DNA of 34,494 nucleotides from a bacterium (GTDB lineage: Bacteria; UBA9089; UBA9088). Within the stretch, counting starts at the first letter, position 1. Every line of letters starts with the position of its first letter. The stretch lies in contig JBFMED010000073.1 of NCBI GenBank assembly GCA_040753475.1, positions 1 to 34,494 on the forward strand. The letters run 5' to 3'. The notes beneath the pieces were generated by a model that made no database searches, had not been told where the DNA came from, and was given only the letters and a program-made list of their open reading frames with translations. Positions 6,481-27,453 of the stretch are shown piece by piece. Both the position numbers and the translations under genes were made by a program.

Positions 6481-6503
6481 CAATGCAGGGTAAATTAAGG
6501 TAA
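6473..6503 (+). repeat. Direct repeat copy 2 (TACATTGACAATGCAGGGTAAATTAAGGTAA), which contains TTGACA-N18-TAATAT and is the likely thrS promoter
   Basis: The HEPN stop TGA lies inside the TTGACA. The -10 TAATAT lies at 6501-6506. Confidence 0.75.
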
Positions 6504-6523
6504 TATTATTTAGCTAATCAGAA

Positions 6524-6617
6524 TTGGATTTTAGGAATTTAGGATTTATAAATTTAGGATTTAGAAATTTTTTTCAATTGTTTTAAATCTTAAATCCTAA
6601 ATCTTAAATCCTAAATT
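6524..6617. repeat. Palindromic array of 7-8 nt tandem repeats (TAGGATT/AGGATTT on the left, TAAATCY on the right)
   Basis: Left arm 6526-6570 and right arm 6584-6617 are imperfect reverse complements built from heptamers. Preceded by TATTTAGCTA (6507-6516). Ends 6 nt before the thrS ATG. Confidence 0.8.
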
Positions 6618-6623
6618 ACTTAT

Positions 6624-8324
6624 ATGGAAGCATTTTGGCATTCTACCTCGCATATAATGGCATCTGCTGTTTGCAAGTGTTTCAAGGATGTGAAGCTTGG
6701 GATTGGTCCTGCTATAGCAGAGGGATTTTACTATGATTTTAGCTGCTCAATCACAGAGGATGACCTTGTAAAAATAGAGGAGGAAATGAGAAAAATTATA
6801 AAGGAAAACCTTCATTTTGAAAAAATTACAATGACAAAGGATGAGGCAAAAAAATATCTTTTAAAGGAGGGTCAGAGCTATAAGCTTGAAATTTTGGATG
6901 AAATCAAAGACAATGAGGTTTCATTCTTCCAAAATGGCGATTTTATTGACCTTTGCAAGGGTCCACATATTGAAAGAACAGGCGAAATTAAGACATTTAA
7001 GCTCTTAAGGCTGGCAGGTGCATATTGGAGGGGCAACGAGAAAAACCCAATGCTTACAAGGATATATGGCATCTCATTCAAAAGCAAAAAAGAGTTGGAT
7101 GACTATCTTGCAAAGATTGAGGAAGCAAAGAAAAGGGACCACAGGGTTTTGGGAGAGCAATTGGGCTTATTTAACATCTATGATGAGGTGGGAGGTGGTC
7201 TTATCTTCTGGCATCCAAAGGGAAATATTTTAAGGGATGAGATTATCAATTTTCTAAAGAGAGAGCATAGAAGGAGGGGGTATCTTGAGCTTGCAACACC
7301 ACACATTGGAAAGAAATCCCTCTGGGAGACATCTGGTCATTGCGATTATTACAAGGAGAATATGTATTTTATAAACAAAGATGATGAAGATTATGTCCTA
7401 AAGCCGATGAATTGCCCCTGCCATATTATGGTTTATAAAAGCACAATAAGGAGCTATTCTGAGCTTCCCTTAAGGTTCTTTGAGCTTGGCACGGTTTATA
7501 GATATGAAAGGTCTGGTGTCCTTCATGGGCTTTTAAGGGTTCGTGGATTTACTCAGGATGATGCTCATATATTTTGTAGAAAGGATCAACTTAAGGATGA
7601 AATAAAGGGTGTTTGCAAATTTGCCTTTGATATGCTCTCCTCTTTTGGCTTTAAGGAATATAATCTCTACCTTTCAACTAAACCAGAAAAATATGTTGGC
7701 TCTGATGAGATATGGGAGATGGCAACCAATGCATTAATGGATGTTTTGCAGGAGGAGGGTCTTAATTGGACAGTTGATGAGGGAGAGGGTGTATTTTATG
7801 GACCAAAGATTGACATAAAGCTCAAAGATGCACTGGGAAGGGCCTGGCAGGGCCCTACAATTCAGGTTGATTTTAATCTACCAGAGAGGTTTGATATTTC
7901 TTATATTGGAAACGATGGAGAAAAGCATCAGCCTGTTATGATACACAGGGTTGTTTTAGGAAGCCTTGAGAGGTTTATTGGTGCCTTAATTGAGCATTAT
8001 GCAGGAAAGCTTCCCTTATGGCTTTCTCCAATTCAAACAAGGATATTGCCAATCACAGACAATCAGCTTGATTATGCAGAAAAAATAGAAAAAATGCTTT
8101 TGGATTGTAAGATAAGGGCAGAAATAGACATTAGATCTGAAAGGCTACAAAGAAAGATAAAGGATGCCCATAATATGAAGATTCCATACCTTGCAATTGT
8201 TGGAAACAAAGAAAGTGAAGAGGAAAAGATAAGCTTAAGGCACAGGGAAAAGGGAGATATCGGCTCTTTTTCAATCCCTGATTTTATAGCCCTGCTTAAA
8301 AAAGAGATTAAAGAGAAGGGATGA
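6624..8324 (+). CDS. thrS: Threonine--tRNA ligase, lacking the N-terminal TGS domain
   Basis: WHSTSH (HxxxH editing-domain motif) at residues 5-10, NCPCH, YRYERSGVLHGLLRVRGFTQDDAH (class II motif 2), GPKID, HRVVLGSLERF (motif 3), C-terminal anticodon-binding region. An in-frame stop lies 9 nt upstream of the ATG. Confidence 0.9.
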   Translation: MEAFWHSTSHIMASAVCKCFKDVKLGIGPAIAEGFYYDFSCSITEDDLVKIEEEMRKIIKENLHFEKITMTKDEAKKYLLKEGQSYKLEILDEIKDNEVSFFQNGDFIDLCKGPHIERTGEIKTFKLLRLAGAYWRGNEKNPMLTRIYGISFKSKKELDDYLAKIEEAKKRDHRVLGEQLGLFNIYDEVGGGLIFWHPKGNILRDEIINFLKREHRRRGYLELATPHIGKKSLWETSGHCDYYKENMYFINKDDEDYVLKPMNCPCHIMVYKSTIRSYSELPLRFFELGTVYRYERSGVLHGLLRVRGFTQDDAHIFCRKDQLKDEIKGVCKFAFDMLSSFGFKEYNLYLSTKPEKYVGSDEIWEMATNALMDVLQEEGLNWTVDEGEGVFYGPKIDIKLKDALGRAWQGPTIQVDFNLPERFDISYIGNDGEKHQPVMIHRVVLGSLERFIGALIEHYAGKLPLWLSPIQTRILPITDNQLDYAEKIEKMLLDCKIRAEIDIRSERLQRKIKDAHNMKIPYLAIVGNKESEEEKISLRHREKGDIGSFSIPDFIALLKKEIKEKG

Positions 8325-9832
8325 AAATCGCATCGTCTAGTGAGATAAAAGAGATAGATAAAAAGGCAGGCGAATTGTATAACATCTCTCCCCTCATTTT
8401 AATGGAAAATGCTGGCATATCAGCATTTAATCTTTGTGTTTCAACCCTGAAAGAGATTGGGGGAAATAGGGTTGTTGTTTTTTGTGGTCCTGGAAATAAT
8501 GGAGGAGATGGCCTTGTTGTGGCAAGGCATTTATTTATCAAGGGATTTGATGTTAAGATTTATCTTGTAAATGGAAAAAAACAAAGACTTGAGAGAAAGA
8601 TAAACCTTGAGATTGTAAGAAAGCTTAACATCCCAATAATAGAGGAATTTGAACAAGCTGACCTTTTTGTTGATGGCTTGCTTGGAACGGGTATAGCAAA
8701 AGAGCCAGAGGGGAAAATAAGGGATTGCATTGATTTTATGAATTCTTCTGATAAAACCATTATCTCCCTTGATATTCCATCCGGGCTTTCCTCTGATTCT
8801 GGATTTTCCCTTGGATGTGCCATTAAAGCAGATAAGACAATAACCTTTGGTCTTCCAAAGATTGGCCAGGTTTTATACCCAGGCGTAGAATATGTTGGAA
8901 AGCTATATCTTTCAAGGATTTCCCTGGCCGATGAATTAAGTAAAGACATAAAGATAAACCTTTTAACTGGCTCTGAAATGGCAAGCCTTCTTCCTAAAAG
9001 ACCTTTAAACTCACACAAGGGCAATTTTGGTAAGATTCTTGTTATCGCAGGCTCGGTGGGAATGACCGGTGCGGCAACCTTATGTTGTCAGGGTGCGATG
9101 AGTATGGGAGCTGGTCTGATTTATCTTGGAATTCCAGAAAGCTTAAACGATATAATGGAAATTAAGCTTACCGAGGTGATCACAAAGCCCCTGCCAGAGA
9201 CAAAGAAAAGAACACTCTCTCCCTCTGCATACAATGGAATTATAGAGCTGGCAAAGAAATGTGATGTTTGTATAATTGGACCTGGCATATCAAGACAGGG
9301 TGAAACAAAAAAGCTTATCCAAACCCTTGTTTCAAGACTTACCATCCCCATAATCCTTGATGCAGATGGAATTTCGGCAATTTCTCCTCAAGAAATTTCT
9401 GGAAAGAATATTTTAATTACGCCACACCCAAAGGAATTGGCAGATTTTGTTAAAATAAATGTAGATGAAATTCAAAGGGATAGAATTGGAATTGTCCAAA
9501 GGGTAATGGATGAATATAAAATTTCTATCCTCCTTAAAGGATTTAGGACACTAATTGGCTACAATGGGCAAATTTACATAAACCCAAGTGGAAATCCAGG
9601 AATGGCAACCGGTGGCACAGGTGATGTTTTATCTGGAATGATTGGCTCTCTGGTTGGTCAGGGTTTAAATCTTGGTGATTCTGCTTGTCTTTCTGCCTTC
9701 CTTCACGGCTTATCAGGCGATATAGCAAAGGAGGAAAAGGGAGAATATTCCCTTATTGCATCCGACCTTATAGATTTCCTTCCTTGGGCTATAGATGAAT
9801 GTAGAGAAAAATACAATGTGGAGGGGATATAA
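8321..9832 (+). CDS. nnr: Bifunctional NAD(P)H-hydrate repair enzyme (epimerase/dehydratase, YjeF family)
   Basis: N-terminal GPGNNGGDGLVVARHL and C-terminal GGTGDVLSG kinase-fold motif. ATGA overlap with the thrS stop. Confidence 0.85.
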   Translation: MKIASSSEIKEIDKKAGELYNISPLILMENAGISAFNLCVSTLKEIGGNRVVVFCGPGNNGGDGLVVARHLFIKGFDVKIYLVNGKKQRLERKINLEIVRKLNIPIIEEFEQADLFVDGLLGTGIAKEPEGKIRDCIDFMNSSDKTIISLDIPSGLSSDSGFSLGCAIKADKTITFGLPKIGQVLYPGVEYVGKLYLSRISLADELSKDIKINLLTGSEMASLLPKRPLNSHKGNFGKILVIAGSVGMTGAATLCCQGAMSMGAGLIYLGIPESLNDIMEIKLTEVITKPLPETKKRTLSPSAYNGIIELAKKCDVCIIGPGISRQGETKKLIQTLVSRLTIPIILDADGISAISPQEISGKNILITPHPKELADFVKINVDEIQRDRIGIVQRVMDEYKISILLKGFRTLIGYNGQIYINPSGNPGMATGGTGDVLSGMIGSLVGQGLNLGDSACLSAFLHGLSGDIAKEEKGEYSLIASDLIDFLPWAIDECREKYNVEGI

Positions 9833-9847
9833 AAATGCAAAGATTAA

Positions 9848-10022
9848 AATGTCTGTATGTATTTAGCTAGGTGAGAATAAAATGGAAAATAGGCACTTAA
9901 GGCACAGAGGCACAGAGTTTATTTGTTACTTGCTTTCTTTGTGCCTTTGTCCCTTTGTTCCTTTGTGCCTGTTTACGTCCCTTTGTGCCTAGCTATAGGG
10001 TAGCTAAACACATACAATGTCT
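9848..10022. mobile_element. MITE-like non-autonomous element with 15-bp terminal inverted repeats, internal inverted octamer arrays and a 7-bp flanking direct repeat
   Basis: AATGTCT | GTATGTATTTAGCTA (9855-9869) ... TAGCTAAACACATAC (10001-10015) | AATGTCT. Inside are AGGCACWK octamers (9891-9917) and the complementary CTTTGTSC octamers (9937-9990). No ORF. Confidence 0.6.
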
Positions 10023-10042
10023 GTTGTCTGTCTTCTTAAAAT

Positions 10043-11320
10043 ATGGGAAAAACATTAGCTTGTAAAATATTATCTAAAAAGGCAGAAAAAGGGGTAAGCC
10101 CTGGCGAATTTATAGAGATAGAGCCAGATATTGCCTTGGCTAATGATGTTACCGCCCCTCTTGCCATTAAGGAATTTAAGGCTACAAATAAGCCTTTGGC
10201 ATTTCCAAACAGGCTTGTTTTGGTCTCTGACCATTTTGTTCCCGCTAGGGATATAAGGTCGGCAAATCAGGCAAAGATTTTAAGGGATTTTGCAAAGGAA
10301 TACAATATCAAACATTATTTTAAGGAGGGTTCTGGAATTGAACATTGCCTATTGCCCGATGAAGGTATTGTCCTTCCTTCTGATGTTGTAATTGGTGCGG
10401 ATTCCCATACCTGCACATACGGTGCATTAGGTGCATTTTCAACCGGTGTAGGTTCAACCGACATTGCCTATTTTATGGCAACAGGAAAAATATGGCTTAA
10501 GGTTCCTGAAAGTATGAGGATTGTCTTCAAAGGAAATCTAGCCAAATATGTCTCTGGAAAGGATTTGATTCTCTATACAATTGGAAAAATTGGGGTTGAT
10601 GGAGCAAATTATATGAGTATGGAATTTTGTGGAGATGCAATAAAAAGCCTCTCTATGGCGGGTAGATTTACAATGTGCAATATGGCAATTGAGGCAGGAG
10701 CAAAGGCGGGAATTGTTGAGCCAGATGAGAAGACGATGGAATATGTAAAGAATAGAGCACCAGAGCAGCCTACTAGCACCAGAGCACCAGACTATAAAAT
10801 ACATAAAGCTGATTCTGATGCAGAATACAAAGAAACATATGAGTTTAATTGCAGTGATATAGATTGCCAGGTAGCCTTGCCACACCTTCCGTCAAATACA
10901 AAGTCTGTAAAGGAAGTAGGCGATATTAAAATAGACCAGGCATTTATTGGCTCTTGCACAAATGGAAGGCTTGATGATTTAAGAATCTCGGCAGAAATCT
11001 TAAAAGGGAAAAAAATAAATCCCGATATCAGGCTTATCATAATCCCAGGAACACAAGAAATTTATAAAGAGGCGATAAAAGAGGGATTGATTGATGTATT
11101 CATTGATGCAGGCGGGATTATTTCCTGTCCTACCTGTGGCCCCTGCCTTGGTGGCCATATGGGTGTATTGGCAGATTTTGAAAAATGTATCTCAACCACG
11201 AATAGGAATTTTATAGGAAGGATGGGAAGCCTGAAGGGAGAGGTCTATCTGGCAGGTTCTGCTGTGGTTTCTGCTTCTGCGATTACTGGAAAGATAACCC
11301 ATCCCAATGAAGTAATATGA
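10043..11320 (+). CDS. leuC: 3-isopropylmalate/homoaconitate dehydratase large subunit (short, archaeal-type)
   Basis: Aconitase-family cluster ligand contexts DSHTCTYGALGAF, GSCTNGR and CGPCLGGH. About 420 aa. Confidence 0.85.
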   Translation: MGKTLACKILSKKAEKGVSPGEFIEIEPDIALANDVTAPLAIKEFKATNKPLAFPNRLVLVSDHFVPARDIRSANQAKILRDFAKEYNIKHYFKEGSGIEHCLLPDEGIVLPSDVVIGADSHTCTYGALGAFSTGVGSTDIAYFMATGKIWLKVPESMRIVFKGNLAKYVSGKDLILYTIGKIGVDGANYMSMEFCGDAIKSLSMAGRFTMCNMAIEAGAKAGIVEPDEKTMEYVKNRAPEQPTSTRAPDYKIHKADSDAEYKETYEFNCSDIDCQVALPHLPSNTKSVKEVGDIKIDQAFIGSCTNGRLDDLRISAEILKGKKINPDIRLIIIPGTQEIYKEAIKEGLIDVFIDAGGIISCPTCGPCLGGHMGVLADFEKCISTTNRNFIGRMGSLKGEVYLAGSAVVSASAITGKITHPNEVI

Positions 11321-13481: not shown

Positions 13482-13859
13482 ATGCAATACTCAGAGAAGG
13501 TAATGGAGCATTTTAGAAACCCAAGGAATGTTGGAGAGATTGAAAATGCCGATGGTGTAGGTCATGTGGGAAACCCGGTTTGCGGAGATATAATGGAGCT
13601 TTATATCAAGGTAGAACAGGGTATAATAAAAGATGCAAAATTTAAGACATTTGGCTGTGGTGCGGCTATTGCTACAAGCTCAATGGTTACAGAGCTTGTA
13701 AAAGGAAAGACAATAAGCGAGGCTCTACAAATATCAGATCAGGCTGTAGCAGAAGCATTAGGGGGCCTTCCACCTATCAAAATGCATTGCTCCCTCTTGG
13801 CAGAAGAAGCCCTTAAAGGAGCAATCAATGATTATCTTAAGAAACGGGATTCGGGATAA
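13482..13859 (+). CDS. iscU: Fe-S cluster assembly scaffold IscU/NifU N-terminal type
   Basis: NPVCGD, FGCGAAIATSS and MHCSLLAEEAL provide the three conserved Cys contexts. Confidence 0.9.
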   Translation: MQYSEKVMEHFRNPRNVGEIENADGVGHVGNPVCGDIMELYIKVEQGIIKDAKFKTFGCGAAIATSSMVTELVKGKTISEALQISDQAVAEALGGLPPIKMHCSLLAEEALKGAINDYLKKRDSG

Positions 13860-13873
13860 CGGGATTCGGAGTA
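13845..13873 (+). repeat. CGGGATT heptamer repeats spanning the iscU stop codon
   Basis: CGGGATT CGGGATA a CGGGATT CGGAGTA. The TAA stop (13857-13859) and the last residues RDSG are repeat-derived. Confidence 0.7.
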
Positions 13874-13881
13874 AAGAAGTT

Positions 13882-13896
13882 TGTATGTGTTTAGCT
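13882..13896 (+). repeat. Solo copy of the MITE-type terminal repeat TGTATGTGTTTAGCT
   Basis: Exact reverse-complement match to 10002-10016. One mismatch to 9854-9868. Confidence 0.65.
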
Positions 13897-13969
13897 GTTT
13901 CAAATTCATTCACTTTTAAGAAATTTTGAATTCTAAATAATGTTCTATATCCCTCCTTCTTTATTTTCA

Positions 13970-19980: not shown

Positions 19981-21239
19981 TGTATTGCTTTCATCGCAGA
20001 GGAGGTTGCCTTTCTGGTTGCCCTGGTAACATCCATCGGATTTTCGGCGACACCTGCAGCATATACACCCTTTTTTAGGGATGAATGGATAATAAACCCA
20101 TCATTATTACAAGAAAATATTCCCATTCCATCCTGACCCCTGACTCCTGACCCCTGACTCCTGACTCCTTTAATTGATGGCTGCATTCCCACCGCAAGCA
20201 CTGCCATATCCACCTTTACCTTTACCTTACTTCCTACTTCCACATCCTCTGCCTCTAAAATCACATCGCCTGTTTTATCCTCGCTAATCTTTCCCACCTT
20301 TCCCTTTATTAGATGGACATTTTTTTCATCCTCTATCTTGTTGTAAAACCTCTCATAGAATATACCGGGTGTCCTAATGTCTATATAAAATAGATAAATT
20401 TCTGCATTAGGGTTTTGCTCCTTGATGTAGGTAATCTGCTTTAAGGATGCCATACAGCAGATGTATGAGCAATAGGGAAGGTGGTTTTCATCCCTAGAGC
20501 CAGCACATTGGACAAAGGCTATTCTTTCAGGGGGCTTTCCATCTGATGGCCTTGTTATCTTGCCCTGAGTTGGGCCATTAAAAGATGCAATGCGTTCCAT
20601 CATCATATTGGTAATAACATTCTTTATCCTTCCAAAGCCAAGGTTCTCTATTTTTTCTGCCTCATAAGGCTTCCAGCCGGTTGCCCAGATAATCGAGGAT
20701 ACCTCTATTTCAATGGTTTTTGGTTGCATATCAAGCTCAATAGCAGAATATTTGCAAGCAGAAACACATTCTCCACATCTTGAGCAAACCTTATCATCAA
20801 TCACATACCTAAGGGGAAACGCCTGGTTGTAGGGGAGGTGTATGGCTTTTGTCTTGTTTAGAGAAAGGTTAAAATCATCCTCTCTTTCAACCGGGCAGAG
20901 ACTGACACACTCACCACACCCTGTGCAATTATCCTTTACATACCTTGGGTTTATTCTAATGGCTACATTAAAACCATTGCCTTTTTCCTTAATTTCTTCT
21001 ACCTCTGCCAAGGTCAAAAATGATATATTTGGATTAGCCCTCATCCTTCTTAAATTTATCTCAACACCGCAAGCAGGAGGGCAGAGCTTGGGAAAATATT
21101 TATTAAGCTGAACAACCCTTCCTCCAAGATATGGATTCTTGTCAAGAATTAAAGCCTGATAGCCGGTTTCCCCTATCTCAATGGCAGAGGTTATCCCACT
21201 AATCCCTCCGCCTACAACCAGAACATCCTTTTTTAGCAT
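19965..21239 (-). CDS. qmoA: QmoA (HdrA-like flavoprotein)
   Basis: MLKKDVLVVGGGISGITSA, CTGCGECVSLCP and CSRCGECVSACK. I place the start at 21239 (AGGA SD upstream) rather than 21293, which would overlap the upstream gene. Confidence 0.9.
   Translation of the reverse strand: MLKKDVLVVGGGISGITSAIEIGETGYQALILDKNPYLGGRVVQLNKYFPKLCPPACGVEINLRRMRANPNISFLTLAEVEEIKEKGNGFNVAIRINPRYVKDNCTGCGECVSLCPVEREDDFNLSLNKTKAIHLPYNQAFPLRYVIDDKVCSRCGECVSACKYSAIELDMQPKTIEIEVSSIIWATGWKPYEAEKIENLGFGRIKNVITNMMMERIASFNGPTQGKITRPSDGKPPERIAFVQCAGSRDENHLPYCSYICCMASLKQITYIKEQNPNAEIYLFYIDIRTPGIFYERFYNKIEDEKNVHLIKGKVGKISEDKTGDVILEAEDVEVGSKVKVKVDMAVLAVGMQPSIKGVRSQGSGVRGQDGMGIFSCNNDGFIIHSSLKKGVYAAGVAENPMDVTRATRKATSSAMKAIQWIRR
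20132..20168 (-). repeat. Five tandem CCTGACY heptamers inside the qmoA coding sequence
   Basis: Plus strand reads cctgacc cctgact cctgacc cctgact cctgact cc, translated as GVRSQGSGVRGQ in QmoA. Confidence 0.85.

Positions 21240-25825: not shown

Positions 25826-27453
<1,628 letters not shown>

Follow-up and report, generated by a model that had tools for sequence, protein, structure and literature searches.

What is the 161-bp unit that lies between nnr and leuC in the genome of an uncultured sulfate reducer, and is it a mobile element or a regulatory hairpin of the leu operon? The window, by which we mean the whole stretch of 34,494 nucleotides analysed here (contig JBFMED010000073.1 of GenBank assembly GCA_040753475.1, GTDB lineage UBA9089; UBA9088), carries this unit at positions 9855–10015. 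An initial annotation, made from the sequence alone, had described it as resembling a miniature inverted-repeat transposable element (MITE), with short terminal inverted repeats, a flanking direct repeat and opposed arrays of octamers inside. Our analysis leads to the conclusion that it is very probably a MITE of the IS66 family of insertion sequences (IS), with ends like those of the ISBst12 group, an 8-bp target duplication and a hypervariable octamer foldback as its interior. This reading is carried by the terminal repeats and the flanking duplication, by the number of copies, by the empty sites and by the identity of the ends with those of transposase-bearing elements.

The 15-bp terminal inverted repeats proposed by the initial annotation are present (Table 1), and their complementarity extends to arms of 16 nt (9854–9869 / 10001–10016, 94% complementary). 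The direct repeat around them is exact over 7 bp; counting the left repeat's terminal G as target makes it 8 bp (AATGTCTG). Between the ends, a purine arm faces a complementary pyrimidine arm that is broken once by TGTTTACGTCC. The opposing arrays fold the element into a single long hairpin, as had been proposed, with an RNA folding energy of −59.4 kcal/mol (z = −5.0, none of 200 shuffles equal) and a DNA folding energy of −27 kcal/mol (z = −4.25, no shuffle as stable).

The suspicion that the element belongs to a dispersed family was borne out by a genome-wide search. The genome of the window (G000) is represented by 1.31 Mb in 221 contigs (86% complete, 37% G+C; full genome approximately 1.5 Mb). 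The 16-mer TGTATGTRTTTAGCTA, with up to two mismatches, matches 164 times in this 1.31 Mb (86 + 78), while the pattern read backwards matches nowhere (0 + 0). Inward-facing terminal pairs number 69 and span 56–489 bp, and BLAST with the 161-bp unit identified 62 loci carrying the GGCAC core. Perfect 8-bp direct repeats flank 23 of the 69 pairs, compared with none once the right flank has been displaced by 8 bp; the standard target duplication of the family is 8 bp. The initial reading of the flanking AATGTCT as a target-site duplication was therefore correct as to its nature and wrong as to its length, the family norm being 8 bp and not 7. All 60 non-redundant paired units lie between open reading frames (ORFs) and none within a long ORF, usually less than 100 bp away from the ORF on either side, and many contigs of the assembly end in terminal repeats of this family. 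Ends of the same type occur approximately 200 times in each of two genomes of the same genus (G001 and G002, the congeners) and 10–51 times in a neighbouring family of the order. One further family carries an ...AGCG variant of the ends; the association is otherwise confined to the genus and the neighbouring family, and no such ends were found in the sister genus.

Mobility was addressed through an empty-site test, in which the flanks of the 23 duplicated insertions were joined by script with one target copy retained and searched for in the congeners. Fourteen of the 23 reconstructions align in one piece of the expected length in G001 (87–98% identity), and six of the 23 do so in G002. Base-by-base alignment shows one single occurrence of the 8-mer at each of the sites C6:535, C181:4041 (both congeners), C219:454, C7:1046, C140:4028 and C106:1372. 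From the fourteen G001 and six G002 empty sites it follows that the unit inserts precisely, from repeat to repeat, and duplicates 8 bp. Many insertions are evidently younger than the split of these species, and by this comparison the family has been recently mobile in the genus. The orthologous nnr–leuC junction, whose comparison the initial annotation had suggested, lacks the element in both congeners (C119 in G001, C3 in G002): there, nnr and leuC overlap by ATGA. The nnr–leuC copy thus appears to have arrived after the split from the two sequenced congeners. In G000 the once-coupled pair has been pulled apart.

The parent of the family was identified through its ends. Decayed C-terminal remnants of an IS66 transposase (...KVEPTNNRAERGLRE.VVIRKIIGTLRNEKGTRIY...) occur in G001, G002 and G004, with ...GAGCTAAACACATAC within approximately 90 nt, and those of the congeners contain stop codons. 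A metagenome scan with the remnant peptide returned 80 loci, more than 40 of which are complete elements of 1.28–1.59 kb bounded by GTAYNTGTTTAGCT. Each has a single ORF of 400–503 aa that fills the space between the ends and terminates inside the right repeat, with no tnpA or tnpB accessory genes, and six of them (L084, L073, L074, L098, L103 and L097) are flanked by perfect 8-bp duplications. The encoded proteins score 276–300 bits against NF033517 (IS66 family transposase; cut-off 180) and match PF03050 at E = 1e-41 to 1e-45; the zf-IS66 zinc finger is present in some. The MITE ends, whose family consensus is GTATGTGTTTAGCTA, are 100% identical over 14–16 nt to the ends of the more than 40 transposase-bearing elements. 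Because the same ends bound full-length elements that each code for a single IS66-family transposase, the nnr–leuC element is assigned to the IS66-family MITEs. Of the cognate transposase sought by the initial annotation, the type could thus be named, although no gene for it was found in this assembly.

The ends themselves begin GTATG or GTACG, compared with the GTAA typical of IS66, so that the first three bases agree and the fourth does not. In overall pattern, GTAnnTnnTnAGCn, they are similar to the 14-nt repeat of ISDge4 and to that of a copy, L029, from an Omnitrophota metagenome-assembled genome (GTAACTATTTAGCC). ISDge4 of Deinococcus geothermalis (PMC12898284), a member of the ISBst12 group, codes for a single transposase of 449 aa, duplicates 8 bp and is bounded by the 14-nt repeats GTGACTACTCAGCA / GTAACTGCTCAGCA. 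A truncated IS66 fragment with a DDE domain on contig C8 of G000, which has a MITE-type end 17 nt past its stop codon, was considered as the partner and rejected, as comparison with L029 places it in a separate IS66 lineage. In the L029 lineage the element's own end overlaps the stop codon, and the C8 fragment likewise has an end of its own, GTAACTATTTACCC; it abuts a MITE right end and a 14-nt tandem array. The true source of the ends is, judging from these comparisons, a second IS66 lineage, that of the remnants in G001, G002 and G004. On G001:C122 (L015 1267–1702), an internally deleted IS66 derivative holds a left end, a stop-containing transposase C-terminus and a right end in approximately 440 bp, and resembles a transitional form from the IS to its MITEs.

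Pieces of the terminal motif had also been noted elsewhere in the window. The one at 13882–13897 is a real solo left terminus: over 49 nt, the segment to 13932 is 90% identical to the left part of the decayed G001:C122 remnant. The next 35 nt or so match the ends of other copies, the same extended end being found in G000 on C103, at C111:19552 and on C210. Given its identity to the remnant, the solo end is evidently what remains of the IS of this lineage itself, or else of a deletion derivative. The other piece, TATTTAGCTA at 6507–6516, shows a weak, degenerate likeness to the terminal motif and is unconvincing as a member of the family.

The ends are shared and the interiors are not, as the initial annotation had anticipated. 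At least ten different interiors lie between the same pair of ends, with cores that include GGCACAAA, TTGTAAA, AATTCCAA, GGRTTCAA, AAGTCAAA, TAGCCTT, CACGAAT/CACTAAT, CGGAAGR and others; further forms are 85–90 bp long without arrays, chimeric or nested. Within the GGCAC subfamily, copies keep the same order of the variant units GTGCC, GTCCC and GTTCC, which argues that the arrays are carried along in transposition. Thirty-six copies of this subfamily fall into 17 configurations of 124–233 bp, with 2–5 units in the purine arm and 3–14 in the pyrimidine arm, and the number in one arm shows no correlation with that in the other (r = −0.07). This variation is most simply, and most probably, explained by slippage that affected each arm independently once a copy had inserted. 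A small protein encoded by the element was considered and rejected. The ORF behind the conserved AGGTGAGAATAAAATGGG, which resembles a ribosome-binding site (AGGTGA) followed by ATG, is 8–100 aa long and lies in three different frames across 42 copies (in the nnr–leuC copy the sole ORF has 36 aa), and on account of these shifts in length and frame the element is regarded as non-coding.

Several copies depart from the simple plan. At C103:1497–1656 a MITE with its own 8-bp duplication, GCTGTTTC, is inserted into the terminal 19 nt of another end, and the copies on C39, C140 and C145 have a duplicated partial left end, GTATGTGTTTAGCTGTCCTATATTTAGGCACAAAGTAAATAAATC, ahead of a complete unit. A 489-bp unit at C204:2196–2684 has the same terminal repeats and encloses arrays together with a 65-aa ORF that has a strong Shine-Dalgarno sequence (MKAVIEKGRVNLPRSDY...). 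Pfam yielded no match to this ORF at E ≤ 1, for which reason the unit may be a cargo-carrying derivative.

The data presented above have led us to propose a model in which an IS66-type DDE transposase, acting in trans, would recognise both inverted ends, insert the unit and duplicate 8 bp of target. The interior does not derive from the transposase gene; it is a foldback of opposing 8–9-nt words (GGCACARA / YTTTGYSC) carried along with the ends, its arrays having been expanded and contracted independently in each arm, most probably by replication slippage. In its present position the element would most likely be read through as a strong mRNA hairpin, as it lies inside a formerly coupled gene pair and has neither a terminator-like nor a plus-strand promoter-like site.

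Four observations weigh against the assignment to an IS66-family MITE. The exact duplication at the nnr–leuC copy is only 7 bp and not 8. The site is also not a clean empty site in the congeners: the junction in G000 holds approximately 41 extra spacer bases besides the MITE (9833–9847 and 10023–10042), including a TGTCTGT tandem at 10018–10031, and these other bases mean that the locus alone gives no clean before/after pair. The similarity between the MITE and the full-length IS is limited to the 14–16-nt ends, so that the interior must come from elsewhere. Lastly, when eight full-length transposases were compared with G000 by tblastn, the only match was a weak one, to the unrelated IS66 fragment on C8. 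No intact ISBst12-like transposase bounded by GTATGTGTTTAGCT is assembled in G000, of which 86% is present, and pairs of ends 500–4000 bp apart in this genome enclose ordinary genes and no transposase. Since the assembly is 86% complete and in 221 contigs, many of them ending in repeats, absence of the transposase is indistinguishable from failure to assemble it, and a multi-copy IS may have been lost from the bin.

The octamer arrays, which the initial annotation had described inside the element, proved not to be special to the family. Tandem matches to GGCACARAG (GGCACARAGGCACARAG) number 281 in G081, 143 in G022, 125 in G100, 80 in G011 and 76 in G080, with reversed controls near 0. The genomes rich in such arrays (G081, G100, G080, G022, G011, G069 and G120, with 25–281 per genome) belong to other families of the phylum and to unrelated phyla, and in the five of them that were searched for it (G081, G100, G080, G069 and G011) the IS66-type end is no commoner than the control. 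As GGCACARAG arrays abound in phyla without these ends, the core, with its GGCACAAAG/CTTTGTGCC hairpins, is one case of a broader class of foldbacks made of word arrays. In G081, from an unrelated phylum, the arrays lie directly downstream of one flanking coding region, judged by position only, in modular spacers that end ...AGTTACARYGTTTTTCAGAGGAG, with a Shine-Dalgarno-like AGAGGAG for the next gene. In the 1.31 Mb of G000 itself, short-period arrays are in excess throughout the genome, some of them within coding genes; the counts are 334 for period 7, 182 for period 8, 171 for period 9 and 144 for period 14. Some opposing arrays in G000 lack IS66-type ends; one of these, at C2:3061, looks like an eroded MITE, because it keeps part of the MITE subterminal sequence. 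Three genes for 23S_rRNA_IVP four-helix-bundle proteins (PF05635, 67–123 bits) lie at C63:3251–3565, C220:8667–8903 and C136:4017–4190. Inverted heptamer arrays bracket those on C63 and C136 (e.g. GGGTCAGA... / ...GACTCCAGACTCC), an array adjoins that on C220 on one side only, and no IS66-type ends were found near any of the three. Foldback arrays without recognisable ends also adjoin tRNA genes, at C177:16840–16911 (between two tRNA genes) and C189:2161–2248. Short-period arrays in the window include those at 6526–6616, 13845–13869, 20131–20169 and 26050–26083.

The abundance of GGCACARAG arrays in unrelated phyla without enrichment of the ends, the end-less foldbacks of G000 and its IVP genes, and the presence of at least ten cores on one pair of ends could all be explained if the foldback core were itself the active entity, spread by a process that disperses word-array hairpins, with IS66-like ends captured or incidental. 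We consider this improbable, as the 8-bp duplications in G000 abut the inverted repeats exactly, removal of exactly the repeat-to-repeat unit and one target copy restores the congener sequence at 14 sites, and the naked array at C2:3061 retains MITE sequence. A small, hairpin-forming intergenic repeat in high copy number also recalls the repetitive extragenic palindromes (REP) and their paired form (REPIN) moved by a REP-associated tyrosine (RAYT, Y1) transposase, and one Y1 transposase-like gene does occur in the genome at C185:6540–6875 (PF01797, 64 bits). The unit containing this gene (C185:6508–7185), however, has an inverted repeat of its own, GGGACGGTTCTATT / AATAGAACCGTCCC, which bears no relation to the MITE family, and REPINs have neither the fixed target duplication nor the DDE-type terminal repeats seen here in the 8-bp duplications and IS66-type ends, which makes such an origin very improbable. 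The alternative to a mobile element named in the initial annotation was a conserved cis-regulatory hairpin, which at this position would be an attenuator, leader or terminator of the leu operon. The element does stand immediately upstream of leuC and has a very stable fold, but it is missing from the overlapping nnr/leuC junction of both congeners and has some 60 copies at unrelated loci. No Rfam 15 covariance model matches at E ≤ 1 in window positions 9000–11000, and the element contains no terminator-like site and no plus-strand promoter-like site, the only promoter-like site being on the minus strand downstream of it. With further copies and element-free orthologous loci both found, the mobile reading was upheld and the regulatory hairpin was refuted by the standard that the initial annotation had itself set.

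Selection might nevertheless act on a mobile element. Nineteen copies of the GGCAC subfamily lie between co-directional genes, and in all but one of them (18 of 19; binomial p = 7.6e-5) the sense strand carries the purine arm, which is also the arrangement in the window. This bias, the intergenic location of all copies in short spacers and the position of the G081 arrays downstream of one flanking coding region, in spacers ending in AGAGGAG, would be consistent with a MITE that is also under strand-specific selection at the level of RNA or transcription, tolerated between co-directional genes only with its GGCAC arm in sense, e.g. as a read-through hairpin that protects or insulates cistrons. 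The bias was not replicated in G001, where five informative sites, all of a variant subfamily lacking the ATG, give 1 in the same and 4 in the opposite orientation. Orientation is also associated with the GC skew of the contig (27 to 8), which is confounded with gene strand, and the counts rest on simple ORF calls in a fragmented assembly. Because orientation follows GC skew in such an assembly, a replication-linked insertion bias is inseparable from selection. The bias is a real pattern in G000 whose cause could be either selection on the transcript or insertion bias, and we regard strand-specific selection as possible, though doubtful. If upheld in complete genomes, a bias of 18:1 would indicate a constraint at the RNA level. 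A broader, unlikely proposal is that IS66/ISBst12-type MITEs are the vehicle for the word-array foldbacks of many phyla, the 14-nt ends having repeatedly picked up or exchanged cores whose orientation is constrained in the RNA, the GGCAC arm lying in sense just past the upstream stop codon. The cores would then be functional mRNA elements hitch-hiking on a transposon, not junk inside one.

The nnr gene upstream, whose stop codon lies 22 nt before the element, encodes a protein with YjeF N- and C-terminal domains, and leuD follows leuC. No identical LeuC on other contigs is on record. The features of the window, together with the C8 fragment, are collected in Table 1.

Table 1. The nnr–leuC element, its flanking genes and related features (window coordinates unless a contig is given)
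Feature	Position	Strand	Remarks
Target-site duplication, left copy, AATGTCT	9848–9854		8-mer AATGTCTG when base 9855 is counted
Left terminal inverted repeat, GTATGTATTTAGCTA	9855–9869	+	One G>A relative to the family consensus GTATGTGTTTAGCTA
Conserved subterminal segment, GGTGAGAATAAAATGGAAAATA	9870–9891	+	Resembles Shine-Dalgarno sequence + ATG; frame after ATG varies between copies
Purine arm, GGCACTTAAGGCACAGAGGCACAGAG	9892–9917	+	Three GGCAC units: GGCACTTAA GGCACAGA GGCACAGA G
Central loop, TTTATTTGTTACTTGCTTT	9918–9936	+	19 nt; kept in copies of the GGCAC subfamily
Pyrimidine arm, units CTTTGTGC / CTTTGTCC / CTTTGTTC	9937–9990	+	Six CTTTGYSC-type units (Tandem Repeats Finder)
Right subterminal segment, AGCTATAGGG	9991–10000	+	Small local hairpin with inner part of right inverted repeat
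Right terminal inverted repeat, TAGCTAAACACATAC	10001–10015	−	
Target-site duplication, right copy, AATGTCT	10016–10022		
nnr, bifunctional NAD(P)H-hydrate repair enzyme	8321–9832	+	NCBIfam TIGR00196, 211 bits; TIGR00197, 142 bits; both above cut-offs
leuC	10043–11320	+	TIGR02083, 630.5 bits (cut-off 610.65); start codon 27 nt past the element
Solo left terminus, GTATGTGTTTAGCTGTTTCAAATTCATTC...	13882–13932	+	1 mismatch (13882–13897); no partner end
Possible degenerate relative, TTTAGGA / TAAATCC heptamer foldback (6526–6616) preceded by GTAATATTATTTAGCTA	6500–6618	+	No target duplication
Truncated IS66 transposase C-terminus (locus L009)	G000 C8:194–546		83% identity to the 472-aa L029 copy

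The family is very dense: one subfamily alone has approximately 60 copies, there are at least ten subfamilies, and the assembly is broken by them at many contig ends. The variable arrays lend themselves to strain typing as natural markers and may cause the spacers within operons to change rapidly in length. Since GGCACARAG arrays occur in distant phyla without the ends, G000 ties word-array hairpins to an identifiable transposase family.

In their general features these elements resemble MITEs derived from other DDE-type IS, such as MITEPsy1 of Pseudomonas syringae and MITEAba12 of Acinetobacter: they are small (here 124–233 bp), lack a transposase, share their ends with an autonomous IS, duplicate a target of fixed length, lie between genes in many copies and are present or absent between close relatives. 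They differ from MITEPsy1 and MITEAba12 in having an ISBst12-like parent of the IS66 family, hypervariable foldback arrays of 8–9-nt units and at least ten interiors for one pair of ends; a full-text literature search returned no pertinent paper on IS66-derived MITEs or bacterial foldback MITEs. The full-length partners, in turn, are like ISBst12 and ISDge4 of the ISBst12 group, with 14-nt repeats of the pattern GTAnnTnnTnAGCn, an 8-bp duplication and a single transposase with the IS66 zinc finger and DDE domain, whereas the window element has no transposase, its repeat starts GTATG/GTACG, and its partners come from metagenomes, with only decayed remnants in its relatives. The BOX elements of Streptococcus pneumoniae are modular intergenic repeats in which variable internal subunits of approximately 45 nt lie between conserved ends, and they are co-transcribed with their neighbours. 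The subunits here are 8 nt long and not approximately 45 nt, and BOX elements are not known to have a matching autonomous IS or an 8-bp target duplication. Tandem units of 7–9 nt, often complement-paired into intergenic hairpins, are also known from the short tandemly repeated repetitive (STRR) heptamers of cyanobacteria and the paired heptamers of Xanthomonas and Nostoc (PMC4692102). Descriptions of those repeats mention no terminal inverted repeats, no target duplications and no transposase, while the foldback described here travels inside an IS66-type MITE. MITEs are a known kind of element; this one is set apart by its parent family, the foldback with interchangeable cores and the link to word arrays across phyla. 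In architecture, the interior corresponds, in a prokaryote, to the eukaryotic Foldback transposons (FB, Galileo and Tetris of Drosophila; Tm1 of nematodes), which likewise have inverted arms of short tandem subrepeats whose number varies by copy and by arm, are non-autonomous and rely on a transposase encoded elsewhere. The likeness is one of architecture and implies no homology, the present elements being prokaryotic, ten to a hundred times smaller and dependent on another transposase superfamily.

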